64,000 bases of DNA from positions 36,458,001-36,522,000 of the forward strand of contig CM119371.1 of assembly GCA_051294905.1 (NCBI GenBank), read 5' to 3'. How positions within the stretch are numbered: position 1 is the stretch's first letter; the number at the start of each line of letters is the position of its first letter. The DNA is from Botryllus schlosseri (lineage: Eukaryota). Under the pieces are notes generated by a model. That model was given only the letters and a program-made list of their open reading frames with translations. It was not told where the DNA came from and searched no databases. Shown one piece after another: positions 1 through 24,000 of this stretch. The translations under genes were made by a program, and so were the position numbers.

Positions 1-497
1 TTTGGCCGTGTATTTCACCATAATCGAAAATACTTTCCATGAAAAATCGAATAAGATGCATGAAAAATATGGACAAAAGTTGCACTATAAGATTCCTTAA
101 AACAGCATTCTACATTATCTTACGAGTATTTAAGAAGCTGCCGGAAGCTGTAAAAAAAGTTGCAAAAACTTGCCCTCAACTTGTTGATGAAAGAATTGAA
201 AAATATGAAATTCAGTCTAAATATGGAGAAACACGCGTGCATCAGAGGTCAATCGAACAAAGCGCGAAAAAAATTGCCAGGTTAACCGCTACTTCAGCCC
301 CCCCCCCAGGTTGAGAGCCAATGGTCTGCAAGAAATGAAGTCACCATTACGAGTACCGAGACAGCCATACAAATAGAGGTTGGAAGGCATTGTTTGCCTT
401 AAATTTAATACGGTCAAAACTAGAATGGAAATTTGAACAGACACACACAAAGAAAACATAACACTTCTTGCTGCCTGTTCGCGATCACGGAATTTAC

Positions 498-2548
498 CTT
501 CATTTTCGGGATTTCGTAGATCCTCTTGTCATCCGTAACTGTTCCGATGATGACGGCAGTTTTGGTATCGTTTCCGGGTTTCTTCATGTTACGCACCTGT
601 AAAAGAGAACTCGTCTCAGGCGAAGTCTCGAGGTCACGAGATGGAGCCTAGCCTCACGTAGCCTGGTACGACCAACACCGCATATTGGATTGGAAATAGA
701 GCTGGTCTTTTGAATATTAGATTGAATAGTATATTCATATTGAAATAAACCCGAATATTTTCGGCTGACACTCGTCAGCGCAACTAGTAGAGAATTGGAA
801 GGAATTTATGTGCCTTGTAGTCGACTTTTATCAAAATACACCAACCCTAACTCTGTCAACAAAAGGAGTTCGTGCACACCTGAAAATAGCACATTGAACG
901 CTGTCTCGTTCGAAACTTCATGCTGGTGACGTCATATTTTGTGATACGATTGTTGATAAACAATGCTATTTCCAATTCTCTGCTAGTTGCTGACGCTTAC
1001 CCCTGACGAGCGTCAGCCGAAAATATTCGGGTTCATTTCAATATGAATTTGAATATACTATTCAATCACGTATATTGAACTTCTGTCCCTCCAATTAGAT
1101 TAGATTAGAATGAAAATTAAAGATGCCGCAAAATAGTTCAATTCATATCAAATTATACTTCCTTCTCTAAAGCATGAGAATTCCATGTCCGCACATTTTG
1201 CACTGGCAATATACAGTTTTGCTGTGGCATTTTAGAGAAAACCACGAAACTGGATAGGAATTAGTACATAGAGACAATGTAACATATATATTAGAATTGG
1301 ATTACCAGCGTTTCGTTCTAGTTTGTCTATTATTGCTGTACTCAAAGACTTGGACTATTAGACGAGTTGTCTAATTTCACTAGACTAGAGCAAATTTTAT
1401 ATGTACTATGAACTTTAATTTAGTGGTTTTTTTTTCTTATTCGAAATTTCAACTAATATTCAAGTTTTTCTAAATTTAGTAATTTCAATTCCGATCTAAT
1501 TTCCAAACAAACTAGCTTCAATTTCAACTTAATATGGATAAATTGTGCAGCGCAAATTTTCCAATTTCAATCCAATTTAGAAAAAAAAACTTTAGATCCA
1601 GTCATAATCCAATTTGGAAAAGCTGAAATTGTTCTAGTTGGACAAGGCGCGCTGAACTGTATGAGGTCAATGAGGACAGTATTCATTTCATTGTAAGTCA
1701 CATGATGACAAAGTAAAGCATTGCTTACCACTCGAGCAATGGAAATGGGAGGTCGGTTGGTTCGGCTCATGAAAAGACGCCTCAAGACGACGCGGTTGAA
1801 CCCAGAGCTGGTTCGTCGAACAAGGAAGCGGTAAAGCTGTAAAATCAACAGATTGTGAAAATATTCCATACACATTAAAGATACCACTGTGAAAAATATA
1901 GAGATTAGAACATGATAGGTCTATGATAACTGGTGATTTTAGATACTCAACATATTGCGCAAAGCTCACTAACGGGCATACACTTGAACATAATTGGTAT
2001 CAATCTTGGGGCACAAAATATGTGGCTAATAATCACACAAAGCACAAATATATTATAAAGCTATATCTAGCTATATCTTGTCAAGATCTTCCTGAACATA
2101 AACATAACACTAATATACAATTGAATGGTAGGTTTATTCTGAAAGATATCCGAATATGTTCGGCTGACACTTGTAAGGGTTAATCTTTATCAATCATTTC
2201 GTGACAAAAATGACATTTACACACGGAAATGGGTTTATTTCAAGTATTTTGCTAGCTATTGTGCATCGTTAATAAATGCTTACCTTCACGAGAAGTTTAA
2301 GATAAATATCATTAGACTTGGGTGCAGTCCTTCTGGACTTGCGGTCCTTGTTATGGCGGATGTCGATACCCTGAAATAATACAGTATTATAGAGCGAAAC
2401 ACATCACAATTCTCCCCGCTGGATACTGCAAATCATACTTTACATCATCATCTACGTCTTAATTAAGAAATTACAGTATCTGGCTATTTGTGCGACCCGA
2501 TATTTCCAGATTAGATACAGATTTTTCTAAAGGAGCTACACTCACCAT
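498..2548 (-). CDS. RPL18: 60S ribosomal protein L18 (eL18), 5' part; remaining exons lie left of the window
   Basis: Exons 2546-2548 (ATG only), 2284-2370, 1729-1836 and 498-596, all GT-AG. They splice to [99 protein letters not shown], the recognisable eL18 N-terminus. Confidence 0.97.
715..1092 (+). mobile_element. Second truncated Penelope-like insertion (short inverted pLTR 715-804 + endonuclease tail/pLTR 805-1092)
   Basis: 805-1092 matches the element from about 14672 onward (TTTATCAAAATACACCAACC...GAGTTCGTG...). 715-804 is the reverse complement of the pLTR. Confidence 0.8.
999..1032 (+). ncRNA. Minimal type I hammerhead ribozyme, RPL18 intron 3 (antisense to RPL18)
   Basis: ACCC CTGACGA GCGTCAGCC GAAA ATATTC GGGT; core intact. 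Confidence 0.75.
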
Positions 2549-3086
2549 CGCGACCGACTAGAAGAGACAGATCTTGGTTACTCATGCATGAGCTCCACAT
2601 TTCAGTCCACGTGACACTAGGTGTCCCAAGACACCAGTTGTTCTCCTTCAAAACGACTATAAAATCGCATTTGTTGACTACTATTGGAAAAATACAGATA
2701 TTATTATTTAAAATGAAAGTCATAATGCATATCAAAAGAATCCCGAACTATGGAGAATCGCATTCGCAGAACTATATACTTCTGTATATTTATAATGTAA
2801 TACAATCTTTTTCCCAGAAAATACGAATTGAATCCTTCTTTTTGTACATTAATTTAATTTTCAATAAAATATCGAGCCATGTGGATTCGTTGAATATACT
2901 AAATCTTTACTCAACTAACTATATTGCACCAGTCCTGGTTCAGGTTCGCTGACGTTTTGGATCACTGCATTACCGGTACAGCAGATTCCGTTTCAAAACA
3001 AATCAGAGATTTGGGATTTCTTGCGAGTTGCGATTCGAGTTTCTCCGGCGACGTAGGTTGGAGTGAAATTTCTAATCATCTTCAAG
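2549..3086. promoter_or_regulatory. Divergent (bidirectional) promoter region RPL18/OFD1
   Basis: Only 538 bp separate the two outward-facing ATGs (2548 on -, 3087 on +). No repeat was recognised in it. Confidence 0.65.
2559..2570 (-). promoter_or_regulatory. Candidate TCT initiator / 5'TOP pyrimidine tract of RPL18
   Basis: Minus strand reads CTGTCTCTTCTA about 10-22 nt upstream of the ATG, as is typical of ribosomal protein gene starts. Confidence 0.6.
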
Positions 3087-6000
3087 ATGTCCAGGTCGAA
3101 GAAAAAAGACGGAATGTCGGCCGAAGAGCTGAAGAGCAAAATGTATCAATCATTGCAGTCGGCGGGAGTCTTGAATGATCTGCGAGTAAGTTAATCTGTG
3201 ACTGAACTTGAACATCCATTGATATTGATACCACCCATCAAATGAAGCGAGTGTCGCTGACTGAAGTTGGTAATTTTCTTACAAGTTGGTTAGTTTGATT
3301 GAAAGCACTTGATATGTCAAATCATATTCATATATATACTGTATATATATAAACTATATACTATATCCATTGCATTATTGCAATAAATACTTTTTCTGAC
3401 ATAAATAACATGTAGGCCTTTAATGACTGTATAATGGAACCAGCTGATGACTTGACGACCTAACGGTCTTATCGCTGATCACCATTTCACTGAAATAGTT
3501 TCCATTATACTACGTCATTTCCCTTAATTTTTGGAAATAACTTGTATTTGTCTTTCTGTTTTGTTTGTTAAAGCATTGAAACGCCTGCTGTTCTGAGTGT
3601 TTTCTCTAACTTATTAAATGACTTTATCAGAAGTCAAAATTCCTACCTCGACTTAATGAATATTTTAACCTCCAGGGCTATCTTCGACAAAGCGTAATCA
3701 ACGAACTGCGTGGTCGTTACAAAAAAGATGGCGGAAGACCGGACGATTCAGACGCTGAACTCTTTATTGGTTCAATGAAACGCAGTAGTAAGTTTGCTGG
3801 ATAATTTTCTGTTCTATAAAAATTCATGTTTTCGCAACCACTTCTGTTAAATGATCTTTGAAACCCGAATTAATTTTCGCATGCCTCTTTGTTACCATTA
3901 TCAAGAGACAAAGAGTTAATTGCGCAACACAGCTTAAGTGAGATATCATCATTCAATTCATAATCAAAACATAGGGCTTGAAAATTGTATATCAACAATT
4001 CTAAATTTCATGCCTATGACAGCATATTTGGTGATGTGATACTATTGTTTATACACAATATTCTTCCCAATTCTCTACTAGTTGCTGACAATTAGCCCCG
4101 AAGATCGTCAGCCAAATAGATTTGAGTTTTTTTTTTCAATATGAATATACTATGCAATTGTATATTGAAGTTCTGTACCTACAAGACGCTCTTCTAATAT
4201 AATATTTGTAACATTAGTATCCTGTGGGCCGGTTTAGATTCTTCCAACTGAATATAGTTATTATGCTTTTTAACCATTTTTCTTCATGTCGCGCTTCTAC
4301 AATTTTGTGATTCACAATGTTTTTCGAATGCTTTACATCTGATTGCATGCATATCGTGTATAATAGCAACAGGGTAATTTCGGATTTGATACTTAATTCA
4401 GTGACTTAATAGTGACTTTTTATTCAGACGGGTCGTCGTGGGAGCAAAGTGCAATCGACAATCTTGTGTATCAGCATTTGAAGCAATCGCGGTACATGTA
4501 CTCCCTCTCCGTGTTCCAACAAGAAAGTGGAGTGGATGGATATGATGTATGTGCATGCTGCAATACATAGGCGCCGACTTACGAGGTCACCATATTCACG
4601 AGGCGGCGGCCACCTCGTTCAAAATGCTCAAATGCCCAAGTGATTTGTGACCAGTAATTAGGAATCAGGCGAACCGATGCGACCTCGTTAAGTACGTCTT
4701 CGATTTCGATGCGCGCGTGTGTCAGGCGCGTAGCCACAGGGGTTTCGGGGTTCGAATCCCCCTGTTTGAAACGCGAAACCCCGTCATTTTGAAATGACCG
4801 TTCTAACTTTAATATTTAGTTGCAATTCAATAATTGTGTTATCAGTGTTCAGCGCCACCGATTTGCGAGAAGCAAGTTATTATAGTTTTGCCTGAAAAAG
4901 TAAAAGTGGTAGTAACTAAGTTTCTGCAAAATTCCCACTCGTGAAAGAGATCCAAGTTTATCCCAAATCTAATTTCTGCATTTCAGAATTCAATTAGCGA
5001 AAAAGTAAGTAGTTATCATTAAGGCAAAGCTTGCTTGAGTACTCTGAATGAGCGGAAGTGCTCCATTACTGACCGCATGTAGGTTACCGTGATAACATTA
5101 CCGAACCTCATTTTCAGGACTCTGTGACGGAAGATCTTCTGAGAAGACTGGGAGCAGCCCCGGATTTACTCGACCACAAAGCCAGGGAAAACGACGCCTC
5201 ATTTCGAGCACCGCATTCATCGACACCCGTCGCAAATGGCAATGGCGATCATAAATTGCTGATTTGGAAGATTCTATCGAGGATGTCGTCGCCGTTACAC
5301 GTCATGACGAAAATGGACGAAAAGGCAGAGAGATATTTGAAGCAGAGCGGGAGACAGATGTCGCTAGGTAGGCTAGGCGCAGACGTTATAAGTCTTCACA
5401 AAATATTTCCGCTTTTTCGCAATACCAATATAGATTTTGCCAACTTGCACTTACTTACTTTTCTGTTTTTACTACTTCGGATAATATGGCACCTATTTTT
5501 GAATTTATGAGGCAGGCCAAAATTACTCCAATTAATAGATCTCGTTGATATACAATGTTTTTTCCGGTTTTCGGCTAGTTGCTGATGATTACTCCTGACG
5601 AGTGTCAGCTGAAGGTATTCAGGTTTGCTTTAATATGAATCTATAATTCAACAGTTTATTATAGTAGGCTAGTCTTATTTAAATACCAGGGTTGTCATGA
5701 CTCGACTCGAGTCATTTTCTAAAAATACGAATCTGTTTATTGACTCGACTTGGACTCGAGTCATTGCGCATGATTTGGACCAAGTTACATGACTCGAGAG
5801 TCAGACGGCCAAGACCGACATTTCATTGTAATTTCGAAGAATAGTAAAGTAACCACACTATTGGGATTTTGTGATATTGGTACTGGTACTTGAAAAATTG
5901 GGCCAGAAACTGCTAAAAGCGAGGAAAATTATTATCTTATAAATGCGAAGCACTCGATATCACCAGAGTTATAAAAAGTGGGCTTAACAAGACTTTAACT

Positions 6001-9000
6001 GGAAACTAACCTCAATCAACACTATGACTGCGAGTGAGAGAAATTTCGATATTATGAATGCGAGCCATCCTATATCACTGCAGCAGAGTTGGAAAAAGTG
6101 GGTTGAACCAGATTGAACTCAAAACTGAACAGTGAACACAACACAATGACTCGAACTCGAGTCACGGACTCGGCCCCACTCACCGACTTAGACTTGACTC
6201 GGTGATGAATTGGAAATGACTCAGCTAAACTCGAGTTGAAACTATAAAAGTGAGATTGACATGAAACTTGGTTACAACCCTGTTCCATACTACTTGAAAT
6301 GTGGCTCCTTGAGTTATGTAGGGGGTCATAAAAATACTAACTAATGAGATTACCTGCAAATTATTGGAGTTCGCTCAAGTGTCGTGTATATATTTCGTTG
6401 TTGATTATTGTAACAAATAATATATATATATATTCGTTTTTCAGCTGAAAAACTGCAAGCTATAGACGAGGAAATGGACGGCACTCTGCGTCAGCGTAGG
6501 TACGACGACGTGGAGCAAAGGAAATCCGTGGTTTCGCTAGCGAGCGCGACTCGCAAGGCCGAAGAGGAGGCGGAAAAGAGTGCTCGAGCGTCGTTTGAGC
6601 AGTGGAAAAAGGTCGAGCTCGCCGCCGTGCGGGTTCAAGAGCAGGAGAAGTCTAGAGAGAAGGTGAAGTAATGTTTTTGGACTGATGTGCTGCGGTTTTC
6701 AAACTATAGTGTTGGCACGATTACTTAGTTTTTGAGTTGAAGATAGCATCAAGTAGAAACCAGTTTATGAGTAGATATTGATCCTTCTTGTTAGTGCGAT
6801 TATGAGAATCCCCAAAATGGCAATTTGAATTGGAAGTATAGCGCTAATACAGTGGTTATTACCTTTACCACCCTGACAACCCTTACGCTGTTGGCAAGCC
6901 TTCACAGAATCCCAGTTTTGGGCCTAATACATTGCTATATAACACTGGTGCACAAAAGAAAGTGCATCAACAACAGTGTTATATGAGCATAACCAAGGGT
7001 TGTGACGAAGTCACAAGGCTCCGAGTCACAAGTCTATCTCACTTTTATAGTTTTGACTCGAGTCTAGTCGAGTCATTTTCAATTCGCCACCGAATCAAGT
7101 CCAAGTCATCGAGCAGAGGGTCGAGTCCGAGTCATGGTATTATGACTCGAGTCCTAGTCCAAGTCATTATTTTAACTGCACTGTTTCCAGTTAAAGTCTT
7201 GTTAACCCACTTTTTATAGCTCCGTTCGGTGATATCAAATGGTTCGCAATTATAATATACTAATCTTTCTCAATTTTAGCAGTTTCTGGTCGCATTTTCA
7301 AGTACCAGCACCAACAGACGAAATCCCAATAGTGTGGCTGCTCTACTATTCTTCGAAATTTCAATGAAATGTCGGTCTTGGCCTTCCGAGTCTCGAGTCA
7401 TATGACTTGGTTCGAGTCATGCGCAATGACTCGAGTCCAAGTCGAGTCAATACACAAATTGACTCAAGTCGAGTCATCAGAAAATCGGGACTCGAGTTGA
7501 GTCATTACAGCCCTGGCAAACTATTAAGCCCGAGTCATAGTGTTGAGACTATATAGTACAAGTCCAGAACATTGTGTGCGGTGTACAGTTTCGTGTTCAG
7601 ATGACGTTCAACCCACTTTTTTACAACCCTGCGTAGGGGATATCGAATGCCTTGCATTTGAAGCATACTAATTCCGTCACCTGTAACAGTTTCTGCCTCT
7701 GTTTCTCAAGTACCAGTACTAATAGATAAAATACAAATAATGTGACTTTACTATTCTTGGAAGTTACAATGAAATGCTTGTCTTGGCCGTCCTAGTCGTG
7801 AGTCATGCACAATGACTCGAGTCGCATCATTTTACGCATTTCAAAATACGACTCGAGTCAAGTTTAGTCACCGAAACCCAGGGTTGTAATGACTCGAGTC
7901 ATTTTTTCAAAATACGGAAATGACTCGACACGACTCAATCTGTGTATTGACTCGATTCAGACGGTGAAAGACCGACATTTCATTGTAATTTCGAAGCCAA
8001 CACACTATTGGGATTTCGTTTGTTGGTACTGGTGCTTGAAAATGCGACCAGAAACTGCTAAAAGTGAGGAAAATTGATATATTATAAATGCGAACCATTC
8101 AATATCACCAAACAGAGTTAAAAAAGTGGGTTTAGGAAGACTTTAACTGGAAACTGAGCAGTCAACACAATGACTTGGACTCGGACTCGAGTCATAATAC
8201 CATGACTCGGACTCGATCCTCTGTTCGCTGACTTGGACTCGGACTTGACTCGGTGGGAATTGAAAATGACTCGACTTGACTCGAGTCAAAAATATAAAAG
8301 GGAGATGACTTGTGACTCGGAGCCTTGTGACTTGGCTACAACCCTGCCGAAACCGCTATGCCAGTAAATTACGCATGTGATTCCCAAGTTTTTCAATGCG
8401 ATACCCGATTGTTACTTTGCAGATCTTAGAGAGGACCAGGAAACTGGAAGACGACTTTGCGCAGAGAAGGGAAGCTCTGATCGCGAGAGAGAGAAACGCA
8501 ATCGACCGACTGAACAATCAGAAAGATGTACGTGAAACACCCCCTTCTCAAAACTGATACTCCTTTGGTAACGCCAATTCTATCACTGAAATATTTATCT
8601 CATCCGGTATGCAGCAATTCGTGGTATAGCACACAATGTTGCGGTGGCTTTTTTCCCGGTCTTTTTCTTTTTATATTCATATTGAAACGAACCCGAATAT
8701 TTTCGGCTGACACTCGTCTGGGTTAATCGTCAGCAACTAGTAGAGTATTGAAAAAACGTTGTTTATCAGCAATGTCATCACAAAATATGACGTCACCAGC
8801 ATGAAATTCGAATAATCGAGGAGAACGTATGACTTGAACTATTGCACTATTTCTATGTTATAATCTAAAATTGATACATTAAACTTATCTATTCGCCTCC
8901 ATCATTGGAAGATCCATTCCCATGTGACTGCACCATTGCTTAATGTTTATACACCATGTTATTTTCTACTTGGTGCTGATTACTTCTGATGAGTGTTAGC

Positions 9001-12000
9001 CGAACATATGTGAGTTTCTTTCAATACGAGTATATTATTCACTCGTAAATTCACCCTTTTTTCGTGACCATTGCGGTGTTCTGTTTAGTAGTCTGCTCAC
9101 TCACATGCATGGCTTAACTGCAACTTGATATTACGAATATACTTGTGTGTTTTGTCGCTAATTAAACGCTGTAAGCCTGGTGCATTACCTGACCTCTGTG
9201 TTTACGCGCAGTCGATGGAGAGAGACCTCCACCATCAACGGCAGACCCTCTTGCAAGAGCTGGAGCACATTCAGTTGAGGGAGAAGAGCTTGCAGGAGAG
9301 AGAGAGAATCTTGAAAGAGATGGTGGGTTTCAAATCACGTAGCTGATGCCTGTGTGTAGCACGCCGCATCGATGAGAGGTATTAGTGTCTAGTTGCGATA
9401 AAACAAGCCCTATAATTCTAAATGCAAAATACTAGAAATCCAGATGCGTTTTCCTTGATGATACTGACTAGGGCAACTTTTTGTAACTTTTCTCTGTTTT
9501 TCACGCCAATTTTTACTGCAACTTTTTAGCAAATATAGCGTTGAAATGTGGAGGAGAGAGTTAAAAACGTGCTATAATCTATTTCTAGCATGGTTCTATT
9601 ATCTTTGATTTGCATAACAATGAGCTATATGATGGGTTAGGTGCATCTGAATGTTATCTATGACACAATGGCTTGCAAGCAAGAAGCTCAACTACCCCTG
9701 CCAAACGCGACCGTGCCAGAACAATATGTTTATCGACCGCTATATTAATTCTGTCCTATACATTTGAGAAAGTTTCCCATTTCACGTAAACCCAGGCGGG
9801 TCCATCGAAAATTACATTTTCACTGGGTCGCTCTTTTCAGGCTATTGACGTTGTTTAAGTCGCTAAGACTGAGTTTTCCTTCAATGCCTAGGTTCAACTT
9901 TGCAGACCTAGGGGGTGGGGTGTGTTATTTGACTTGTTTTAGGCGAAGGGGTTATCGCTATGCTGTTTGGTTTCTGGGGTGGAATTATTCCTGCATTGCG
10001 TAATTTTCTTGCTGTGTACCGGAAAAAATGGAATTTTTGGCGGTCTCGCCTGTCGCCAGACCATCCGTTCAATGGCAAAGTAACAAATTGGACAGAGCAG
10101 GATTCATACTGTCACTGAAATGCTTGAATTTGATTTAGATAGAAGATTTGTCTCATCAATATTTCTTACTAACCGCTTCCGCATCATATTTTATTGTCAA
10201 ATTTGTTGCTAAACCCATGTAAAATTATTCTTAAAAACGGGCTTTCTTTGATGTCACTGAAAAACACTTTCATTTTCAACGAACGATCTCAAAATGATTC
10301 CGCCGAAATTTCGTGTACCGATATATTTTAGGAAATGATTAAGATTCGGGAATTGGACTTGATAAAAGCCGAGGCGTTGAGCGATCAGCTACGCAACGCC
10401 GGGGTCAAAGGTGACAGGAAGAACGCGGAGGACTCTGTGGTGTCGTCATGCGCCGAGTCGCTGCGTAAATCTCTGACTGGCAAAGAAAGTATGATATTGC
10501 TTTATGTGTTCCACCGTCAGGGTCATAACTAGAAAATTTTTAGCATTTTCAAGTTAGATTACAATTAGAATTATAGCTACAATGTATTTTTTGCAAATTT
10601 TATTATACTGTAATTTTCCATGCATAATGCGCAAAATTTTCACGAGTTTTTGCCCCAAAATAGGGGGGTGCGTATTATACATGGGTACAACAAGCCTTGA
10701 AAAAAATCTCCCTCGATAAAAAACTTGAAATCACACCCATCTTCATGTTTGTTTCCAATCGCGCATCACTTTCAGCCTTCGCGCGTAGTAATTCGTATTA
10801 TAGACTGTAACGCGCTGCCAATTAGTGGTAAGCGTGTTGCCAATTAACGTGCACAAGCACGCGATCTCCTGCTGAGTTGGTTTGCCGTTTGTACGCGAGC
10901 GAAATTAGGTCACTAATAGACACTCGAGTGTGGCAATTCTCGCCAATTCATCGGGTCAACGACAGGCCTGAACATATACAAGAGACCATGTGCGCAAGAT
11001 ATAATCGCCTGCGTAATCAGTCACATCTCCAACAGACCTGTTGTGCATGACATAACCGTTAGCCTAGGCGCAATCGCATCTGTAATAGGCATCGTGCGCA
11101 AGATGTCGGTTCGTTGGCCTAAACTAACTCGCCGCCGGCCTCGCAGGCTTTGGCTGCTATCTACTATCGTTTAGAGACAATGCCGTTAATTGTATAATGA
11201 TTAGCAATCGCATCTGTAAAAGGTCTCCTCGTGCTCAAGATGTATCGCGACACCCGCCTCGCAGGCTTTGGCTGCTATCTACTATCGTTTAAAGACAATC
11301 CCGTAATTGTATAATGATTAGTGATCGTCCTGTAATGATTGTTCAAGACTGACATCTCGGAACTATTCATGTACTGAATGTAGGGTGCGTACTATACATG
11401 GGTACAGGCTTTTTCCCAGAATTTACATGCTATTTTAGGAGTGCGTATTATACATGGGGGCGTACTATACTTTGAAAATTACGGTAGTATTATATCACCA
11501 ACATTTCGATCTAATTGGACCACTACAAATCTAGATGAACGCTTCCTCACTATTTAGAAGTGCCTTTGATGTATGATTACTTCAGGCCGTCAACTGGACC
11601 AAGTGTTGCAGGAGCTGGAAGTCCGGGCCAGCGAGTCGGCAATGCTCCGTTCTGAACTAGAAACCTTGAAGATGGAAATGAGGACTACAAAAGTGGGTGT
11701 TATGTCTTCTTGGTGGTACGATTGCTGACATACAATGTTCTTTCCAATTCTCTGCTAGTTGCTGACGATTACCCCTGACGAGTGTCAGTCAAAAATATTC
11801 GGGTTTATGCCAATATAAATATGTTATTCAATTGTACCTTCCTTGTTCTGTGTTGCAGTCTATTTCTAATAGGCGCGGATCTCCTATACACTATATACAG
11901 CTTTGTGAATAGGTGGTAAGGTGGATATACATTTTTAAGAGACTCTCGGAGGCACCGAACTTCAATATCCAATTGAATAGTATATTCATATTGGTATGAA

Positions 12001-15000: not shown

Positions 15001-18000
15001 ATGTCTCATCTTACCCCCACACCTCAAAAAAATGTTAAAATGTTCTGTCTGTTACTTTTCAGAGGTAAGCGCATGATGACACTGCTAATATTGCACTTTA
15101 CCAGCTTCGGTAATGTTGTTTTATAATATGAAGTACTAAGATAGCCATGCCCTTACAAACACGAATTCACAGAACTGACATAGACTATGAAAATATAGTT
15201 TTTGCCGTTTTTCTGCCCAACATCAAATCTGTTTTCCTTGTTGATATGGTAGGACTATAGAATGAGATTATGGGCACAACATAGCTGAAGGAATATGTCC
15301 ATCAGAAAATTGTTCTATGAGAAAATTGCATGTCTCATCTTGGCCTCCTCTCCCCATATAGTGCAAAACTTTGCTGTACAGACATTTGTCATTCTCTTGC
15401 TTGGACCGGAACTTGAATTCTATCTGCTGTCGGTCTTTTTTCAAGTCGTTTCATTTGCTGTGATAGCGACAGGAGATGTCGAAACTGTCCGAAGTGAGAG
15501 AGACCTTCGAAGAGAAGCAGCGGCAATTGGACGACATGATGGACCGGGTCTCGGCCAGGATCGGGTCCGACCGGTCCGCCAGGACTCCCCGAAAAGGTCC
15601 GGTCATTATTAAGAGTAGGCAAAGCTCGAGTCATTTGATTCTGAACCGCCTGTTTGTCTTTGAGTATTCGAATATCGCTTATTACGACGTCATAACAGTA
15701 TAAAAGATGTGAAAATTTTAAATATGTACCTTTTATGCCACTACAAACAATATAATGGCAGTTCTAGAGCACATTGGCAATTATTTGAAATATATTTTCA
15801 ACTATACCCATTTCATTGCATTTTGTGACAATGCTGCACATTAGGGGTCTTCAAAACCGACTTTCCTTCTCAAATCGTACTGGCTACTTGATAAATTTGT
15901 TAGGTTACCTAATTTAAGCCTGCACACCAAATTTGGTTCAATTCCAACCAGTAGAAAGTTTCTATTTATTATATAAAAATTAATGAACAAAAATTTCAAA
16001 ATTTTCTGTTATGTTGTCTATTGATACGATGTTCACCAAATTTGGATTATGAATAAAATAGTATTTACAATTTACGATTACGATTACGACACACCAAATT
16101 TGGTGTGTAGGCTTAAATTAGGTAACCTAACAATTTTATGAGGTGAACAGAAAGTTTTCAAATTTTTTGATATTTATTTTTATATAATAAATAGAAACTT
16201 TCTTCTTCTGTAGCAATGCGGCTACTGGTTGGAATTCAACCAAATTTGGTGTGTAGGCTCAAATTAGGTAACCTAACAATTTTATCAAGTAGCCAGTTCG
16301 ATTTGAGAAAAAAAGTCATTTTTGAAGACCCCTACTGCACATGGGTTGATTGTGGCTTCTCAGATATGTCATGTACGCTAACGTGTGTAGCTTTGCAACA
16401 AAAGTTTCACAGTGGAAAATAGTATCGAAACTACGATTCTCGGTGATAAATTAACTCTTGGTTGGAAGGGAGCTCATAATTTAAGTACTAGAGTCGTGGA
16501 GTTAATCTCTGGGTCAGTGTCGTATGACACATATTTTAAAATATTTTTCAGGCGCATCATCGGGTCAGCTACCCTCGACCAGCTTACGGCTTCTCATGGA
16601 CGCACAGTATGATGTAACAAAGGGCTCGTCAATCAGAGACTACGATCCAGTGCATTTGGAGAGGAACGTGCGCTGGGCCGATAAAATGCCGTACTCTGTG
16701 AACGCGAACCTTTTAGGTTGGTTTGAGATTATATTATTATCCTTCTAGTAAACTCTACCAAATCTCATTTATTAAGTATTGCTTACCGTTCGTTTTGAAG
16801 AGCATCTTTGCGACACAGAACTTCAATATACAATTGAATAGTGTATTCATGTTGAAATGAACCCGAATATTTTAGACTGACACTCGGCAGGGGTAATCGT
16901 CAGCTTCTAGTAGAGATTCGGAAAGAACATTGTATAACAGCAACCATTCAATTTCTACACCCAATTGAAGTAATTTTGACTTTTAGATTTCTGCCTCTGC
17001 TTTTAATTGATCAGGAATTCACAGCATTACAGGGTTGTAATCAAGTCGCAAGGCTCCGAGTCACAAGTCAATCTCACTTTTATAGTTTTGACTCGAGTCA
17101 AGTCGAGTCGTTTTCAATTCACCACCGAGTCAAGTCCAAGTCAGCGAGCAGAAGGTCGAGTCCGAGTCGTGGTATTATGACTCGAGTCCAAGTCATTGCG
17201 TTGAATGCTCATTTTCTAGTTGAAGTCCCGTTAAACCCACTTTCTATAACTCTGTTTGGTGATATCGAATGGTTCGCATTTTTAATATACTAATTTTCCT
17301 CACTTTTAGCAGTTTCTGGTCGCATTTTCAAGTACCAGTACCAATAGACGAAATCGCAATAGTGCGGTCTTTACTATTCTTCAAAATTGCCGTGAAATGT
17401 CGGTCTTGGCCGTATGAGTCTCGAGTCATATGACTTGGTTCGAGTCATGCACAATGACAAGAGTCTAAGTCGAGTCATTTCCGTCGCGAGTCGAGTCATC
17501 AGAACATCGTGACTCGAGTCGAGTCATGACCCAAATCAATACAACCCTGCAGCATTACTTCTACTTGAGTAATATTGCCGACCGCTCACACCACATCCGG
17601 CGAAAATGCCCAAAAAAGAAGCGAAGAAATACATTTATGTTTTCTACACACTACTCACTCCAATTGGTTTTGATTTTACTACTTCTTCCACGTGTTCAAT
17701 TTTTTAGGAAAAATTTTTTACTTTCACGTTTTTGATTTTGAAAAGTCAAAGGTAGTCTTGGGACGAGTTTCGGTCACCCACGGTTGTAACCAACTCGCAA
17801 GGTTCCGAGCCACAAGTCAATCTCACTTTGTTAGTTTTGAATCGAGTCAAGTCGAGTCATGTTCAATTCACCATCGAGTCAATTCCGAGTCAGTTAGCAG
17901 AGGGTCCAGTCCAAGTCCTTATGTTCACTGTTCAGTTTTCGCTTCAATTCGGTTTTACACACGTTTATCAACTCTGCTCAAGTGATATAGAATGGCTCGC

Positions 18001-21000
18001 ATTCATAATATCGTAATTTTCCTCAGTTTTAACAGTTTCTCGCCCTATTTTTTCAAGTATCAGGACTGATGGACGAAATACCAATAATGTGGTGACTTTA
18101 CTATTCTTCGAAGTTTCAATGAAATGTCTCTCGACTTGCGTACAAGTCGGGTCAATACAAAAATTGACTTGAGTCGAGTCATTTTACACATCGGAAAAAA
18201 AGACTCGAGTCACCAAAAAAATCGTGACTTGAGTCATTAAAACTAGGGCTAGTTTTTGCAACTTTTTTTTACAGCTTCCGGCAGCTTCCTAAATACTCGT
18301 AAGACATGTAGAGTGCTGTTTTAAGCAATTTGAAGGAATCTTATAGTGCAACTTTTTGCAACTTTTGTCCATTTTTTTCATGCCACTTTTTACAACATTT
18401 TGCAACTTTTTCGATTTTTCAGGAAAGTATTTTTGATTTTGGTGAAATACACGGCCAAATTCGACTGAAGTACCGCAAATTAGCACTGAAGGAACGTTCC
18501 GACGGGTGTTTCGGTAGCTGAGCCGGAAAGTTGGCCTTTTTTTTTAGTCAACCGAGCCAAATGTGGTCCTTTAGTGCAACTTTGTGGAAAAAATAAATGC
18601 AACTTTTTACTGTAACTTTTGTCAAAAATAAATGCAAATTTCCACGGATCTGCAACAAAAACTTGCCCTAATTATAACCCTTCATTCACCTATGATTATG
18701 TATGTTAACAGGTAGCGCGAAAAGTCCGAGAAATGCGAGCAAGGATGTGAGCGCTGTGGATATGGACACCTCCAACGAGACGGTGATGTCCAGCGACCTT
18801 TCCACCTCCGCGATTCGGAGAGATATCCGAGAAAAGTGGGTTTTATGGGTGGTTTAGTAAATTCTGGATGACAATTTTGCACCGACACCATCCTTATATT
18901 TGTGAAGAGGAAAAATGTCCCGACTGACTATATTCAAGTTAAGGACATGCCCAGGCTATCCATGTCAAAAACAAACATAAAATCCTTCAAGTAAATCATT
19001 AGTATTGCTCACATGCCTTTGATAACTTGAAGCTTGATTCGGAAATTCTCTTGAAGTCATGAATCATTCCACAGTTTTTCATATATCGAGTCTAAGTCGA
19101 TATTTTGTTAGGCACTGACTCGAGTCAAGTCATTGTAAAAATGTGACTCGAGTCTCTCTCCTCTCTATCTTGACGACTCGCTCCGCTTCAGATTCAGAAA
19201 CTTGGAAAAGGAGACGGAACAGTTGGATCAAATGTACAAGAGATACATCAACTCGAACTATAAAGACGTCGGTGCAAAGCTAACAGGTGCGCGCATGATT
19301 GATTGAAGAATGCCTCTCCGGCCTAACATGAAATTTAAAAGCTAGCGTCATATTCATAACATCTGCAATGTTCTTTCCAATTCTCTGCCGGTTGCTGTCG
19401 ATTACCCCTGACGAGTGTCAGCTGAAAATATTTGGGTTCATTTCGATATCAATATACTGATCAATTGTATGTTGCTGTACCTCTAAGAAGCTCATGTGCA
19501 TATAAACTCTATACTGAGTGTAAAAAGTGAGTTGTGTTGCAAAAAAAATTGAGAAATCTTGAAATTATATTTTTCAGACGAAAATTACCGGAACCCAGAT
19601 CCCAAACCCGAATATAAAGCATTCCGAGAATCATTTCCCGTCCCAAAATCGCCCGCAACAAAATCAACCTTGTCGGAAAGCGCCCATCGTCGATCGCCTC
19701 TAAAAGTTGACATGTTAACGCGGGAGATACCTGACTTGGAACTGTCGAAGCTTGACGCATCGCCACGGCAACAAGATCAAAGACCAAGATCGCCGACAAA
19801 TAGTGATGTCACAGAAGATAAAAGCAAGTCGCGTCCTGAATTAAAATCAAATGAATCACCGTCTAACGACGACGCATCTCGAGATACGCCTTTGCTGTCT
19901 ACGACCCATCCCGGGGCACAATCTGACCGCAAGGACACCGGGGCAGTGCCGGGACTGTCGTTAGGGTCCGGAAGTTCTAGCAGCTCTGAAATTTCAGAAC
20001 GTAGTTCAGTTTCGTCGATTTCACCCAGACCTGACTTAGCCGGACCGGCCCGGCCCTTCGACCGCATGGCGATTTTCGAGAAGAAAACGGAAGATATATT
20101 CTCCGGGCAAAATCTCTCAAAGTCAGCGGAATCTCCAGACCACCAAATATCATCGGACAACCCAAGGTCTCCGGACCGCCCCAAATATACAGACCGCTCA
20201 AAATCGCAGGATCACCCAAAATCTCCGGACCACCAGAAGTCGACAGACAGCCTGAAATCTTCGGAATGGCCGAAACCTCAAGGACGCCCCAAATCTCCGG
20301 ACCACCAATCCGATTCCGAAGAAAACGACCGGTTTCAAGATATACTTCGCAGCATCGACCAACGTAGCGCCCGCAGTATCGAGGGCGACACTGACCCAAA
20401 ACTAGCGGACATTCTCAACAAAGTAGAGCCTGCCCCGTCTCAAATTAGTACCGGACCAGTTTTGACGTCACCAAAGCGGCCCAGTGATGGACAGGTGGTA
20501 GTCGCGTCCAAATATCAATCCGAGAGTGACGATTCATCTTCAAGTATGTCGGAACACGTCAAGCAAGGCAAAAAAGATTCTCTGGGCATTGGTGAAAAAG
20601 GGATCGTCACATCAGAACAGGATCGCGGTCGGAGTGACTTTTCTGACGACCAGTCTTCAGCGAGCTCGATTTCGGGGAAAAATAACGACAAAAAATCTGA
20701 TTATCCCGATGATTTTGCGTCTTCTGCGTCTGAGGTAAAGACTATGTCCGACTACGAGCCTACTTCTACCTCCGCGCCCAGGATCGAAGAGAAGGTATTT
20801 CGAATCCTTTTTTCATTCCACCTTCCGCTGAGGCAGGGTTGTAATGACTCGAGTCAAGTTTTCATTTTGTAAATGCGTAAAATGACTCGACTCGAGTCAA
20901 TACAGATATCGTGCATGAATCAAGACTAGGGCGGCCAAGACACACATTTCATTGTAACTTCGAAGAATAGTCAAGCTACCGCGTCATTGGTATTCCGTCT

Positions 21001-24000
21001 ATCAGTCCTGATACTTGGAAAATAGCCCCACCCCCAGAAACCGTTGAGAATGAGGAAAGTTAGCAGGGTTGTAACCAAGTCCCAATCTCACTTTTATAGT
21101 TTTGACTCGAGCCAAGTCGAGTCATTTTCAAATCACCACCGAGTCAAGTCCGAGTCATCGAGCAAAGGGCCGAGTCCGAGTCATTGTGTTGACTGCTGAG
21201 TTTCCAGTTAAAGTCTTGTTAAAGCCACTTTTTATAACTCTGTTTCGTGATATCGAATGGTTCGCATTTATAATATACTAATTTTCCTCACTTTTGACAG
21301 TTTCAGGTCTCAATTTCAAGTACCAGTACTAATAGACGTAATCCCAATACTGTGGTTACTTTACTATTATTCGAAATTACAATGAAATCTCAGACTTGGC
21401 CGTCTGAGTCATATGAGTTGGTTTGAGTCATGAGCAATGACTCGAGTCCAAGTCGAGTCAAGACACAGATTGACTCAATTCGAGTCATTTCCGTGTTTTC
21501 AGACTCGGACTCAAGTCAAGCCAATACAACCCTGAAAATTAGTATATCATGAATGCGAGCCATTCTGTATCGCTCCAGCAGAGTTGGAAAGATGGGTTGG
21601 CAGATACCATTCACCTATGGAGTGTCCTGTTCACAGAAGGGGTTTAAAACCCACGGCGAATCATGATGATTGCTGGGAGAAATGACGAAGAAAGTCAATT
21701 CATGTCAATTTACCAGCGTGTCGCAGGCCCAGACGTGCTGATTTATTATATGTGTGCCGCTTCACCCATAGGCCTACTTGTCTTTTGATTATGGAGCAAT
21801 AATGGTGCGTAAATATCAATTCACTCCATCTTGCGCGAGACAATATTATTGTAAAGGCTACGATTAGCGGTTCGTCGTAAGTCCTACAAGTTTTTGTGAA
21901 TGCGTCACAACAACAAACGGAAGCCACTGTTCGTGATATCATATCAAGTTTATTTGAGTTGTTCCGCATCACATAAAATAAATATGCACAATCTTGCACC
22001 ACTTTAGAGCATTTATTTGAACGGCGTTTGATTGCGGTTGCTCAAAAATCCTGATATTTAGGTTTGTATCGTTATGAAGATATTATTCAATCCATTACAA
22101 GCAGAAGCAGCAATTTCCAAGACACATCAAATCAAATTACATTTTTATTAAAAATAAAAATGACCAGGACCCGATCCACAGTTTCAACCGTTGATTACAC
22201 CCTGTCGCATTCTCTTTCAGGCCGCCAGCCAGGAATTGGACGAGGACAGGTCCGGAGCTGACATCAACTGGTCCAACTTACAGCCGGACAAGTCTGGTAG
22301 GTGGCTCTGCCCGTGCAGCACCATTTACTCAATTCTCAGTTTTTTAGGAATAATTCCATGAAGTCTTTGTCAATTTTAGTAGGGTAGTCTTCAAGGGGCA
22401 GCTTCTTTTAAAATTGCAAAATCTAACCTCAAAACTAACGCAAAGTGACTAATGCCACCGCAAATAGCTACAATCTCGGATCATATATTCAGTTACCGTG
22501 ATACCGGCGCTATTTGGCTATCACTTGTAAAATTGATGCAACAAAGAAGATACATTGTGGCACGTTCCAAGTCCTCAGGCGAATTTACTCCTACGAATTT
22601 ACTATATAGCATCAATTCATTAGGGTTAAGTACATGCGTGAATGACGATTATACAATCTCCTCATGTTAACAAACTTACACTTATGGTAATCTTGTCAAA
22701 TAGTCCGGAAGTGCTGTCAATGTGTGAGTCCCTGATCTCTTGTAAAGAATTAAATACGTGCGCGCTTATCAACGGGTATTGCGTGGCCTTAGCGACGATT
22801 TGCGCAAGTCAGAATGTCCGAGTTGTTATGGAATCTGTTCTGTAACGACACCGATTTCAGGTGGTTCTAATCTTTCTAATCTTTTATAACGCAAGCCTTG
22901 ACCCACATCTTCTGATGGTTATGTTTAAGTGGTCGCAGATGTTCGATGTCATTTAGTTTCGCGATGTTAACTCTTGAATCGCTATCGCTAATCAACATAC
23001 ACTCAATGGCATTGTCTCTAAAGCATTGCAAGTAGAAGCAAAGGTATGCTAGGCCCGAGACACGATAGTTAGGCCAGCGATGATATCTTTCGTGCCAGGC
23101 CTATTGCAGATGCGATTGTGTGGGCCAGGGGTGGGTAACCTGCATCGGTTAAAGGAAATTTGTACGGCCGTCGACACGTAATTCAATTAGTATGTGTCGG
23201 CGGCCGTCGACATGCGAATTTAATTTACGAATTGACTCCCAAATTTTTGAGACATTTTAATTAATCTTGGAATTTTCTTTGCTGTAAGCGCGATTCAATG
23301 TTACTTCATTTTATCGATTCGTAGGGTAGCGCCCTTTGCAATCTGAACCGCACAGTAAACGCGAACAAACGGTAGAGGAAAATGCTGCGCCTGATATACA
23401 AAAATGGTGTACACCTCACGAAATCTGCTACCAATTCAACGAACATGTTTGCACGCAGGAGAGCTTGCAAAGTCGGCAGAACGCATCGAAGCCAGGCAAG
23501 ATCCTGTTGTCGATTTTGACGAGTCACAATCGGAACAGTCCATGGAAGCGCCGGATGATGTGTAAGCGGTTTATGATTTTGTCGGATATTCTATTGCATC
23601 AATGATGCGATAGTTGAAGAAAAGTTATTGTTTCATTCGAATGTGAAATTTGACAAATTTACGTAGCCAAGGACGTGAACATCTAAAAACAGTACATCGA
23701 GCTGAAGCCATCTGTTCGCCTCAATTAGTCAAATTTTCATGTCGGTGACGTCATTTATGATGATACGATTGTTGATATACAATTTTCTTTCCGATTCCCC
23801 ACTAGTTGTTGATCATTACCCCTGACGAGTGTCAGCCGAAAATATTCGGGTCCATTTCAATATCAATATGCTATTCAACTGCGTACTGATGTTCTGTACC
23901 TTCAAAAACCTGTTTCATTACTCAATTGGTTATCATTTTGACTCCTTCCACTTTTACTTGTCATTTTTCATTTGGTAAGTCAAAACTAGATGTAGAATCG

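Follow-up and report, generated by a model that had tools for sequence, protein, structure and literature searches.

Hammerhead-bearing repeats near RPL18 in Botryllus schlosseri as probable 5'-truncated copies of a Penelope-like retrotransposon

The repeat copies scattered over the first 24 kb of the window (the whole 64-kb stretch of Botryllus schlosseri DNA analysed here) are best explained, with a probability that we put at about 0.85, as dead-on-arrival, 5'-truncated insertions of one autonomous Penelope-like element (PLE) whose tail carries a hammerhead. Judged from its sequence, this hammerhead joins two known forms, the minimal hammerhead of PLEs and the pseudoknot (PK) hammerhead, in a predicted fold in which a pseudoknot takes the place of helix II. 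We describe the anatomy, copy numbers, covariation and RNA context of the element and its ribozyme.

A blastn search of positions 14700-14960 against the whole window gave 14 copies at 10 loci, the count reached in the first-pass annotation; all lie at 714-23878 and none in the 24-64 kb part, and the outer limits widen to 710-23914 with a tandem-unit reference as query (Table 1). The copies are 82-391 bp long, 5'-truncated and have a single 3' end in common, and seven of the 14 bear an optional 37-nt PLE 'tail' that is also found at many genomic loci. The pattern CTGACGAGN{4,12}CGAAA matches six times in the window against 0.02 expected, a number reached in none of 100 shuffles. When the 14 copies are aligned, the complete motif ACCC-CTGACGA-G-N-GTCAGC-C-GAAA-ATAT-TC-GGGT runs uninterrupted in four, 804-1094(+), 14282-14526(-), 14539-14929(+) and 23729-23914(+), which are the same copies whose ribozymes (at 999, 14347, 14868 and 23818) had been singled out as intact; the remaining 10 have core or stem mutations.

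Table 1. Features in the window (HHR, hammerhead ribozyme; identities are those of repeat copies).
Feature	Position	Strand	Remarks
Host RPL18 exon	420..647	-	Pfam Ribosomal_L18, E=3.7e-10
Copy, abutting 804..1094 head to head	710..804	-	Sense to RPL18; core present, stem I 5' arm deleted
Older copy, 291 bp	804..1094	+	89% identical; in RPL18 intron, antisense to RPL18; partial tail
HHR of copy 804..1094	989-1032		Intact; linker nucleotide C
Decayed copy	2112..2193	-	78% identical
Decayed copy	3998..4194	+	82% identical; with tail
Decayed copy	5544..5660	+	80% identical
Copy	8672..8813	-	91% identical; core broken, CTGA>CAGA (U4>A)
Decayed copy	8944..9051	+	74-76% identical
Copy	11710..11836	+	89% identical; G12>A
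Copy	11934..12102	-	85% identical; with tail; box and GAAA intact; C17>G, palindrome broken
Target-site duplication, left, 8 bp	14274..14281		CTAGTATG
Left half of inverted pair, 245 bp	14282..14526	-	37-nt tail 14282-14318; intact HHR 14347-14390
Youngest and longest copy, 391 bp	14539..14929	+	5'-truncated PLE insertion without tail; right half of inverted pair
ORF remnant	14539..14766	+	Last 75 codons of GIY-YIG endonuclease domain and TGA stop (14764-14766)
3'UTR 5' of ribozyme	14767..14857	+	Holds TGACGTCA palindrome, conserved in lineages A and B
Pseudoknot 5' strand GCTGAC	14858..14863	+	Predicted partner 14881-14886
Stem I 5' strand ACCC	14868..14871	+	Partner 14898-14901
Catalytic box C3-A9 (CTGACGA)	14872..14878	+	
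G10.1, 1-nt linker, pseudoknot 3' strand, C11.1	14879..14887	+	3' strand GTCAGC, 14881-14886
G12 A13 A14, palindrome AATATT, C17	14888..14897	+	Palindrome runs A15.1 to U16.1; predicted dimeric helix III
Predicted cut site	between 14897 and 14898	+	
Stem I 3' strand GGGT, rest of 14-nt leader, start of next unit's ORF	14898..14929	+	ATG (14912) and first 6 codons
Target-site duplication, right, 8 bp	14930..14937		CTAGTATG
Copy	16795..16943	-	89% identical; with tail; core mutated
Copy	19366..19493	+	86% identical; with tail; C11.1>T, C17>T
Copy	23729..23914	+	85% identical; with tail; HHR core intact at 23808-23851

A search for a full-length copy with reverse transcriptase (RT) and GIY-YIG domains, proposed in the first-pass annotation, was successful. 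The unit, as defined by the tandem arrangement at locus L049, is 2,692 bp long and has a leader of 14 nt, an ORF of 848 aa counted from the ATG (860 aa between stops) and a 3'UTR of 131 nt, closed by the 44-nt hammerhead. The ORF comprises an N-terminal domain, an RT (RVT_1, E = 8e-9; RT chains in the PDB, E = 6.8e-5) and, at the C-terminus, a GIY-YIG endonuclease. The GIY-YIG match in the 848-aa protein itself is below threshold (E = 0.028); PF01541 is matched by five of seven aligned relatives at E <= 0.1 (best 1.4e-4), and Y...Y-V-G, R, H and E are invariant columns of the alignment. A single ORF with RT and C-terminal GIY-YIG, partial tandems as pseudo-LTRs (pLTRs), partners that are inverted and 5'-truncated, extensive 5' truncation and a tail of 30-40 bp are common to this element and to the PLEs described in Craig et al. 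2021 (PMC8557442).

A first look at the genome returned 1,599 candidates for the repeat, with 43 of the 45 matches listed being 98-100% identical, and the hammerhead pattern occurs at 4,818 sites against 0 for a control pattern. Among the 99 RT matches scored (95-97% identity), at least seven fall in uninterrupted frames of 857-860 aa, stop to stop. Because many copies are ~99% identical and full-length frames are still open, the family is young, in agreement with the recent activity proposed earlier.

The short copies had been read as a ~240-bp pseudo-LTR that multiplies alone, non-coding and with its mobilisation in trans, in the manner of a retrozyme or SINE. Most copies are indeed short and far more numerous than the full-length ORFs seen, and animal retrozymes have been proposed to derive from PLE pLTRs (a 2026 bioRxiv preprint; de la Pena et al. 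2020, PMC7229834). However, copy 5' ends are spread continuously, at lengths between 82 bp and over 1,300 bp, without a favoured boundary, and the repeat spans the last codons and stop of the RT/endonuclease ORF together with the first codons of the next unit, the longest window copy reaching 228 bp into the endonuclease. The tail and the target-site duplication, moreover, agree with direct PLE insertion. Metazoan non-LTR retrozymes, as described by de la Pena et al. 2020, resemble the present family in their type I hammerheads, occurrence as animal repeats, probable reliance on PLE enzymes and copy size of a few hundred bp, but they are non-coding short tandem repeats of 150-450 bp with canonical loop-loop hammerheads and small circular RNAs, whereas the copies here are dispersed or inverted and carry ORF ends and a hammerhead of the minimal PLE type; short tandem arrays are absent from the window. 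We regard independent multiplication of the pseudo-LTR as largely refuted, and very improbable.

Under direct insertion of the autonomous PLE, and going by PLE biochemistry, the endonuclease would nick the target and reverse transcription would begin inside the RNA, 31 or 68 nt downstream of the ribozyme cut site, either position falling, in a longer-than-unit RNA, among the first codons of the unit that follows; cDNA synthesis would mostly abort early. Two internal starts combined with early abortion would yield one 3' end, with or without the 37-nt tail, and ragged 5' ends, and the same route could give rise to tandem arrays and to head-to-head inverted pairs, which are frequent in the genome. 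A common 3' end, variable 5' ends, a tail, inverted pairs and target-site duplication are among the PLE hallmarks described in Craig et al. 2021 and Frangieh et al. 2024 (PMC11167929), and in the account of the latter the Poseidon PLE of Anolis carolinensis, PAc, likewise has two internal RT starts whose spacing equals the genomic tail. RNA reads leave the present element at two places ~40 nt apart (L049 1678 and 1718).

The youngest copy, whose upstream limit was taken from locus comparison, is 98-100% identical to genomic copies that are themselves ~99% identical. The window frame at 14500-14766 ends with the same residues as the 848-aa ORF, and the 3' end of the insertion reads ...TTTAAT. 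Its inverted partner is 98.8% identical to the lineage A reference. The same 8 bases flank the two halves on their outer sides, which indicates that the pair arose from one insertion event. The TGACGTCA palindrome in the 3'UTR of the copy at 14539-14929 may have a promoter role.

The ribozyme is, by prediction, a type I hammerhead with a 4-bp stem I, 11 core nucleotides and no helix III of its own; Rfam hammerhead models gave no match to it even at E <= 10 on 101 nt. Hammerhead numbering places the predicted cut after C14897, as had been anticipated. Among 11 lineage representatives, U4, G5, A6, A9, G12-A14, A15.1, U16.1 and C17 are invariant, whereas the outer pair of stem I covaries (A-U, G.U or U-A), in lineage B the C3-G8 core pair is replaced by U3.G8 and U3-A8, and in other lineages AAGCTT stands in place of AATATT, the palindrome of helix III. 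In a covariation test on these representatives, from which the fold model was itself built, 99.4% of cells were paired, against 21-46% with partners slid, and the score of 0.242 (0.104 for shuffles) was reached by none of 500 shuffles. Both sides had changed in four of the 15 pairs, with the pseudoknot, stem I, C3-G8 and the helix III palindrome contributing one apiece.

The local stem II is a single, invariant G10.1-C11.1 pair with a loop of 7-8 nt, and the linker nucleotide after G10.1 is U, G, C or A depending on the lineage. The predicted partner of the loop is a run of six nucleotides, 4-5 nt upstream of stem I, and this pseudoknot replaces helix II in our model. Complementarity is retained in all 11 representatives, with compensatory changes: GCUGAC/GUCAGC (4,664 copies) and GCCGAC/GUUGGC (41 copies, lineage C) have duplex energies of -8.1 and -7.5 kcal/mol, compared with -3.4 and -4.6 when their strands are mixed, and UCUGAC/GUCAGA is found in a relative of 57% identity that lies on a metagenome contig (L103). 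The window copy at 23729-23914, with GTTGAT as its 5' strand, retains the pairing via two G.U pairs. Independent events are few (for this genome, a single change on both sides and a single G-C to G.U; for the metagenome relative, one); furthermore, sub-lineage L076/L077 has lost the terminal pair, L080/L083 have a G.G mismatch, and the mismatched combination GCCGAC+GUCAGC occurs in 60 copies. No conserved helix IV was found on inspection of the alignment (A1).

A very short stem II had been described as a known trait of PLE hammerheads, which is at odds with Cervera and de la Pena 2014, in whose account helix II of the published metazoan minimal hammerheads is contiguous and 6-8 bp long, with a base left unpaired between A9 and G10.1. 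For the present element the description holds locally, with its one-pair stem, but not for the helix as a whole, which would be replaced by the pseudoknot and draw its remaining pairs from the strand upstream of stem I. The published form does occur in distant relatives on metagenome contigs (28-40% aa identity), where helix II is ordinary, contiguous and 5-8 bp long. PLE minimal hammerheads otherwise match in being type I with a 4-bp helix I, a conserved G10.1-C11.1, a palindromic 15.2-16.2 segment and an occasional U3-A8 core covariant, and in numbering thousands of mainly solitary motifs. The PK hammerhead (Weinberg et al. 2015, as cited; crystal structure in Zhan et al. 2024, PMC11300833, PDB 8YDC) is similarly described as having a 6-bp pseudoknot for helix II, a loop closed locally by G10.1-C11.1 only, and a partner strand 5' of helix I with a short linker between. 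In the solved structure, however, an additional stem-loop (helix IV) supplies the partner strand as its loop, and helix III is normal and stable, whereas here 4-5 nt separate partner strand and stem I, helix III would form only as an intermolecular palindrome, and the context is a eukaryotic retrotransposon.

This palindrome implies that two ribozymes would pair through helix III and cut after C17, and we retain both the dimer and the assignment to a PLE family with a minimal type I hammerhead that the first-pass annotation had put forward. In lineage A the helix III duplex is all A-U (-0.2 kcal/mol), and nearest-neighbour folding favours the inactive hairpins CUGAC/GUCAG and CCGAA/UUCGG. The ribozyme might instead work as a monomer, with the stability of the pseudoknot, the motif's strongest helix (-8.1 kcal/mol), letting a 2-bp helix III suffice, and the solved PK hammerhead is reportedly very fast (Zhan et al. 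2024). Yet with only four bases between A15.1 and U16.1 a hairpin would need a 2-nt or 0-nt loop, and the palindrome stays perfect through the double change AAUAUU to AAGCUU, as an intermolecular duplex requires; we consider action as a monomer improbable.

Cleavage would release an RNA beginning 14 nt before the AUG of the ORF (the distance is 9-21 nt for sister lineages and 3 nt for the metagenome relatives), a placement that differs from PAc, and if it takes place in vivo the ribozyme may serve in 5'-end processing or unit-length formation. A hammerhead-like fold that is conserved but does not cleave, and that acts just upstream of the AUG as a recognition or translation element for the element's protein or for ribosomes, would also fit several observations. 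In vitro, the minimal hammerheads published for PLEs show poor cleavage (Cervera and de la Pena 2014), and PAc, according to Frangieh et al. 2024, uses uncut RNA as template, has ribozyme mutants that insert like wild type and yields no RNA-seq ends at the cut site. Likewise, every genomic copy here spans the cut site, so that its template RNA was uncut there, and read ends from two raw RNA runs did not, at either L049 cut site (between 1650 and 1651 and between 4342 and 4343), pile up to the 5 molecules and one fifth of local depth that were needed for listing. Short-read libraries, however, do not enrich 5'-OH or cyclic-phosphate ends. The invariance of the core in all 11 representatives also speaks against a non-cleaving fold, as does the covariation of the core tertiary pair C3-G8 (C-G to U.G to U-A), a constraint specific to the hammerhead active site, and we think such a fold unlikely. 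Over the 5' two-thirds of the ORF, bulk RNA coverage is ~0-2x, with ~6% of the run sampled, and the truncated copies sit inside other transcripts in the RNA-seq data.

As to the host genes, the Pfam match in the exon at 420-647 bears out the RPL18 context, and no Pfam family was found in the exons tried of the + strand coiled-coil gene that had been called OFD1. The idea that self-cleaving motifs are seeded into host pre-mRNAs stands only weakly: the RNA reads gave no cleavage signal; of the intact copies, 14539-14929 lies in the sense direction of the + strand gene, and 23729-23914 would do so too if the gene reaches that far.

A blastn search with window positions 14700-14960 against the whole window returned 14 matches at 10 loci, all within the first 24 kb (positions 1-24000) and none in 24001-64000. 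The whole hammerhead is unbroken in four of the 14 aligned copies (804-1094(+), 14282-14526(-), 14539-14929(+) and 23729-23914(+)), and the other ten carry disabling changes. The first-pass annotation had reported the repeat with these numbers and at these places, and its anatomy of the repeat also proved accurate. A longer reference, taken from a genomic tandem array, widened the copy limits to 710 and 23914 and added no copies. The motif CTGACGAG-N(4-12)-CGAAA occurs six times in the window versus 0.02 expected; on the genome-wide total of 4,818 pattern matches, about 0.6 would be expected in 64 kb against the six observed. The copies sum to approximately 2.4 kb within a 23.2-kb interval and are 74%-98% identical to the youngest copy, which indicates a long period of insertion at this locus. 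Their local clustering fits the reported habit of Penelope-like elements (PLEs) of inserting beside older copies.

The two ends of the copies behave differently. All 14 have their 3' ends at query positions 221-237, while 5' starts lie anywhere from 1 to 157, and a 37-nt tail is present in seven of the 14. A young inverted pair consists of a tailed copy, 14282-14526(-), and a tail-less one, 14539-14929(+), so that the tail is found at one end of the pair only; the pair is enclosed by an 8-bp target-site duplication, CTAGTATG, at 14274-14281 and 14930-14937. As the same eight bases occur on both flanks, the pair arose by a single insertion event. No target-site duplication could be called for the older pair at 710-1094.

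We then considered the element from which these copies derive; genome-wide figures are pattern counts and first-look candidate counts in the 495.5-Mb assembly and are lower bounds. The 208-bp core of the repeat has at least 1,599 first-look candidates in the genome, with 98-100% identity in 43 of the 45 matches listed. Thirty fetched and oriented loci share one common 3' end, and differ in how far homology reaches upstream (about 230 bp in the shortest, over 1,300 bp in the longest), and the longest copies, traced upstream, run into a reverse-transcriptase (RT) open reading frame (ORF). A genome search with this ORF gave at least 2,880 candidates, and among the 99 scored at least seven are 95-97% identical in stop-free frames of 857-860 amino acids (stop to stop). 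One full-length frame, of 860 amino acids stop to stop and 848 from its ATG, opens with the translated ribozyme region and terminates inside the "240-bp repeat"; the repeat thus joins the end of one ORF to the start of the next unit. From 5' to 3' it comprises the last ORF codons with TGA, a 3'UTR of 131 nt that has the hammerhead at its end, a leader of 14 nt, and the opening codons of the following unit from its ATG on. Four consecutive units with a period of 2,692-2,693 bp, each containing an 848-aa ORF, occur in a tandem array (L049), and further tandem runs were found at other genomic loci.

The element protein matches RVT_1 above the Pfam cut-off (E = 8e-9) and RT chains in PDB (E = 6.8e-5). 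For GIY-YIG (PF01541) the protein alone is sub-threshold (E = 0.028, 15.2 bits versus a cut-off of 22.6), and NCBIfam and PDB searches recovered the RT and not the endonuclease. PF01541 is matched by five of seven aligned relatives at E <= 0.1 (best 1.4e-4), and the invariant GIY-YIG columns are found at the C-terminus (Y720, Y730-V-G732, R741, H745 and E816). Read by eye from the translation, C-H-C-D-C lies between the GIY and YIG motifs, which are followed by histidines, and the stretch immediately upstream has no cysteines. The accessible text of Craig et al. 2021 gives a CCHH motif inside the endonuclease (EN) and the lack of a CX2-5CxxC linker as markers of the Penelope/Poseidon clade.

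Three further observations concern element-derived sequence elsewhere in the genome and in the 3'UTR. In sister lineage D, same-strand ribozyme matches at G000:C2:32077527, 32082939 and 32088352 are spaced by 5,412-5,413 bp, twice the usual unit, which suggests a composite or nested tandem repeat. Another locus, close to 27.49 Mb on G000:C6 (L025 1940-2366), has a 77-bp unit repeated six times head to tail; every unit includes the final 42 nt of the 208-bp query (3' strand of stem I through ...TTTAAT), and the array is a minisatellite derived from the 3' end of the element. A perfect TGACGTCA palindrome (CRE/ATF-like) lies at window 14799-14806, within the 3'UTR and some 60 nt before the ribozyme, and recurs at ~3970-3977 of fetched locus L047; it is kept between lineages A and B despite approximately 67% identity of the surrounding UTR, and may belong to the internal promoter attributed to PLE pseudo-LTRs (pLTRs).

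According to the portions available of Craig et al. 2021 and Frangieh et al. 2024 (PMC11167929), PLE insertions are marked by heavy 5' truncation, partial tandems (pLTRs) and an inverted 5'-truncated neighbour copy, and an optional 30-40-bp tail is explained by reverse transcription starting at either of two internal sites. The present element has the features of an EN+ PLE: RT in a single long ORF, a C-terminal GIY-YIG, partial tandems, inverted 5'-truncated partners, a common 3' end with heavy truncation, and an optional tail. Genomic copies either stop after ...TTTAAT or run 37 nt further, and head-to-head pairs are frequent across the genome. We found a recently amplified PLE family with a hammerhead in its pLTR to be a well-supported reading; elements of this kind have been on record since 2014 (Cervera and de la Pena 2014).

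The first-pass annotation had the repeat spreading largely as a solo, non-coding unit similar to retrozymes or SINEs. That claim fails, as the copies carry ORF ends, have ragged 5' ends and bear the hallmarks of truncated insertion. Retrozymes, in the available part of de la Pena et al. 2020 (PMC7229834), are short non-coding tandem repeats (150-450 bp) with canonical type I hammerheads; the window copies are dispersed or inverted and contain ORF ends, and their hammerhead is minimal. A SINE identity, which calls for a fixed 5' head and an internal pol III promoter, was likewise rejected, as the 5' ends are ragged; an Rfam search of the window matched no tRNA, 7SL or 5S family. The window copies are ordinary truncated PLE insertions. 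The 14 window repeats, and several thousand more in the 495-Mb genome, should be labelled as such in annotation and not treated as a separate SINE or retrozyme family.

Lineage A, the element lineage closest to the window copies, is the nearest lineage for all 14 of them. The type I hammerhead core (C3 U4 G5 A6 N7 G8 A9 ... G12 A13 A14 A15.1 ... U16.1 H17) has the correct order and spacing, and the pattern has 4,818 genomic matches versus 0 for the control. From A15.1 to U16.1 there are six bases, AATATT, a palindrome that gives a hairpin no space.

Window positions of the hammerhead parts in the reference copy, the four intact ribozymes, and a second repeat family
Feature	Position	Sequence	Strand or orientation
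Stem I, 5' strand	14868-14871	ACCC	
Catalytic box	14872-14878	CTGACGA	
G10.1	14879	G	
C11.1	14887	C	
GAAA	14888-14891	GAAA	
C17	14897	C	
Stem I, 3' strand	14898-14901	GGGT	
Intact ribozyme	989-1032		antisense to RPL18
Intact ribozyme	14347-14390		antisense to + strand coiled-coil gene
Intact ribozyme	14858-14901		sense to + strand coiled-coil gene
Intact ribozyme	23808-23851		sense only if + strand gene reaches that far
Second repeat family	6848-7219, 7333-7556, 8118-8355, 16856-17293, 17674-18016, 20831-20916, 21026-21281, 23890-24129		both strands

To follow these features through evolution we compared lineages within the same genome: A, A' (85% amino acid identity), B (68%) and C (about 80% to B), together with D and E, which were found by pattern search. 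Over the 11 lineage representatives the core is invariant, save for the covarying C3/G8 pair, which passes from C3-G8 through U3.G8 to U3-A8 in lineage B; a U3-A8 core variant was noted earlier in Schistosoma (Cervera and de la Pena 2014). The outer pair of stem I is A-U in four representatives, G.U in three and U-A in four, and the palindrome, AAUAUU in lineage A, reads AAGCUU in B to E, a double change that keeps it palindromic. In the 11 representatives 99.4% of cells are paired, versus 21-46% with slid partners, four of the 15 hammerhead pairs show a both-sided change, and the observed covariation score was reached by none of 500 shuffles; these values need to be interpreted cautiously, as the structure was read from the same sequences as were tested and the lineages are few. 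All of the lineage variation in the hammerhead is of a kind that would preserve the predicted structure.

We rejected the alternative of placing the catalytic box at the first CTGACGA (14859-14865): that stretch lacks an adjacent stem I and lacks G10.1/C11.1, and in lineage B it is the second box that changes to UUGARAA, with U3-A8, the first remaining constant as one strand of a pairing. The Rfam hammerhead models gave no match at the gathering score, nor with the threshold relaxed to E <= 10, whether 25 kb or 101 nt was searched, and the sole weak matches at relaxed thresholds were to chance miRNA and snoRNA families.

The gap from A9 to G12 is only 9-10 nt, which has room for G10.1-C11.1 and a loop but not for a helix II of 6-8 bp; there is no contiguous hairpin helix II, G10.1-C11.1 being the single local pair. 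The loop, GUCAGC, is complementary to GCUGAC, a block 4-5 nt upstream of stem I that is conserved between lineages as strongly as the core. This arrangement points to a 6-bp pseudoknot that would replace helix II, with G10.1-C11.1 kept. Across the 11 representatives 98.5% of cells in the six pseudoknot pairs are paired; lineage C, where GCCGAC is found with GUUGGC, accounts for the both-sided change of a single pair and for the shift of another from G-C to G.U. A second both-sided change (UCUGAC with GUCAGA) occurs in L103, a relative from a metagenome contig. Among genome copies, strands are matched in 4,664 of the common form and 41 of the lineage C form, and the two mixed combinations number 60 and 2; duplex energies are -8.1 and -7.5 kcal/mol for the matched forms versus -3.4 and -4.6 for the mixed. 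Any of the four bases (U, G, C or A) can stand between G10.1 and the pseudoknot strand, as would be expected of a linker. The closest metagenome-contig relatives (56-63% amino acid identity), L103 among them, have the short form of the hammerhead; in distant ones, at 28-40%, helix II is contiguous and one base is bulged, as in the form already published.

Against the pseudoknot stand the small number of independent events, the loss of the terminal pair in one sub-lineage, a mismatch in two other sequences compared (L080 and L083), and the complementarity of GUCAG to the box CUGAC as well, an inactive pairing favoured by folding programs. Nearest-neighbour folding, which is uninformative for a pseudoknotted, tertiary-stabilised ribozyme, returned the active fold for neither monomer nor dimer. 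By inspection, a 4-bp stem around the pseudoknot partner strand is possible in lineages A and D and not in C or L103; a helix IV at this position, with only 4-5 nt to stem I, found no support across lineages. We also observed that in all lineages C11.1-G12-A13-A14 is complementary to U16.2-U16.1-C17-G1.1 (window 14886-14900 and its equivalents), so that a local hairpin (CCGAA/UUCGG in lineage A) can hide GAAA and the cleavage site in the monomer; such a hairpin might be an off-state relieved by dimerisation.

The minimal PLE hammerhead of Cervera and de la Pena 2014 is similar in that helix III is absent or minimal and 15.2-16.2 is palindromic, allowing a dimer; their 6-8-bp helix II and unpaired base between A9 and G10.1, however, are absent here. 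The pseudoknot (PK) hammerhead, as presented in the available text of Zhan et al. 2024 (PMC11300833), has the same plan, with a 6-bp pseudoknot for helix II and only G10.1-C11.1 closing the loop. As presented there, it differs in that its pseudoknot partner is the loop of a helix IV stem-loop, whereas inspection here showed no conserved helix IV, and in that helix III here would be intermolecular only. Pseudoknots linking stems I and II are common among hammerheads, according to the portion available of Perreault et al. 2011. The putative combination of a pseudoknot for helix II with a dimer-only helix III is the most interesting residue of this analysis; support for it comes from covariation and from the PK hammerhead, an analogue of solved structure.

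We tentatively suggest, at a probability of about one in three, that one PLE subclade, comprising lineages A-E and the relatives of 56-63% amino acid identity, swapped the hairpin helix II for a pistol-like 6-bp pseudoknot with the 5' flank of stem I while helix III stayed dimer-dependent, which would be an undescribed hybrid of the PK and dimeric PLE forms; the pseudoknotted form may already have appeared in Lunse, Weinberg and Breaker 2017 or in the supplement of Cervera and de la Pena 2014. This form escapes the Rfam models and probably stem-loop descriptors too, so model- and descriptor-based screens can overlook a whole class of PLE hammerheads. If the suggestion is true, pseudoknots could account for the PLEs that are reported, in the accessible text of Craig et al. 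2021, with an 'HHR core' only or without a canonical hammerhead. The lineages form a natural series in which every hammerhead helix has been tested by evolution, including C3-G8 and the proposed pseudoknot, and the genome holds dozens of natural mismatch variants suited to direct assay.

Two raw RNA runs, labelled with the same species, and two contig sets were aligned on the tandem unit, with about 6% of the bulk run read. Bulk RNA depth is 0-2x across the 5' two-thirds of the ORF and reaches approximately 170x only in the last 200 bp or so, in both orientations equally, and 96% of aligned reads pass into unrelated sequence. The source of the signal is therefore truncated copies that form part of other transcripts. 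Reads leave the element at 1678 and 1718 of the tandem array, the tail-less and tailed ends. At a listing threshold of a fifth of local depth, no pile-up of molecule ends was found at the cut sites in the two raw RNA runs; as the libraries are not end-specific, this is weak evidence against efficient cleavage and none against catalytic competence, which is favoured by the invariance of the whole core and by covariation at C3-G8. All genomic copies extend across the cut site, and the template RNA of each was therefore uncut there. For an Anolis element, the part available of Frangieh et al. 2024 (PMC11167929) likewise describes no ends at the cut site and an uncut template. In all lineages seen the predicted cut falls 3-21 nt upstream of the ORF start codon; that cleavage would occur just before the start codon, yet all insertions come from uncut RNA, bears on the role of hammerheads in PLEs.

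The host introns had been assigned to RPL18 and OFD1 in the first-pass annotation. The exon at 420-647(-) is RPL18, and translation gives a second open frame at ~1700-1830(-), which we take to resemble the RPL18 N-terminal region; the pair at 710-1094 is thus inside an RPL18 intron. A coiled-coil gene on the + strand extends from about 3.1 kb to at least 20.9 kb, and its identity as OFD1 was not confirmed with Pfam. At 19553-20872 (+) we observed a 439-codon open frame, S/P/D/K-rich with repeated ...PKSPDHQ... units, which matched no Pfam family and probably represents a large exon of low complexity in the + strand host gene. The same introns hold a second, unrelated repeat family (see table), which translates to recurring strings such as ...VTRLRVTS.SHFYSFDSS.VESFSI.HR.KSKS... 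and contains GACTCGAGTC-type palindromic hairpins with weak, chance-level miRNA-family matches (E 0.35-9.8); this family resembles a MITE-like foldback element.
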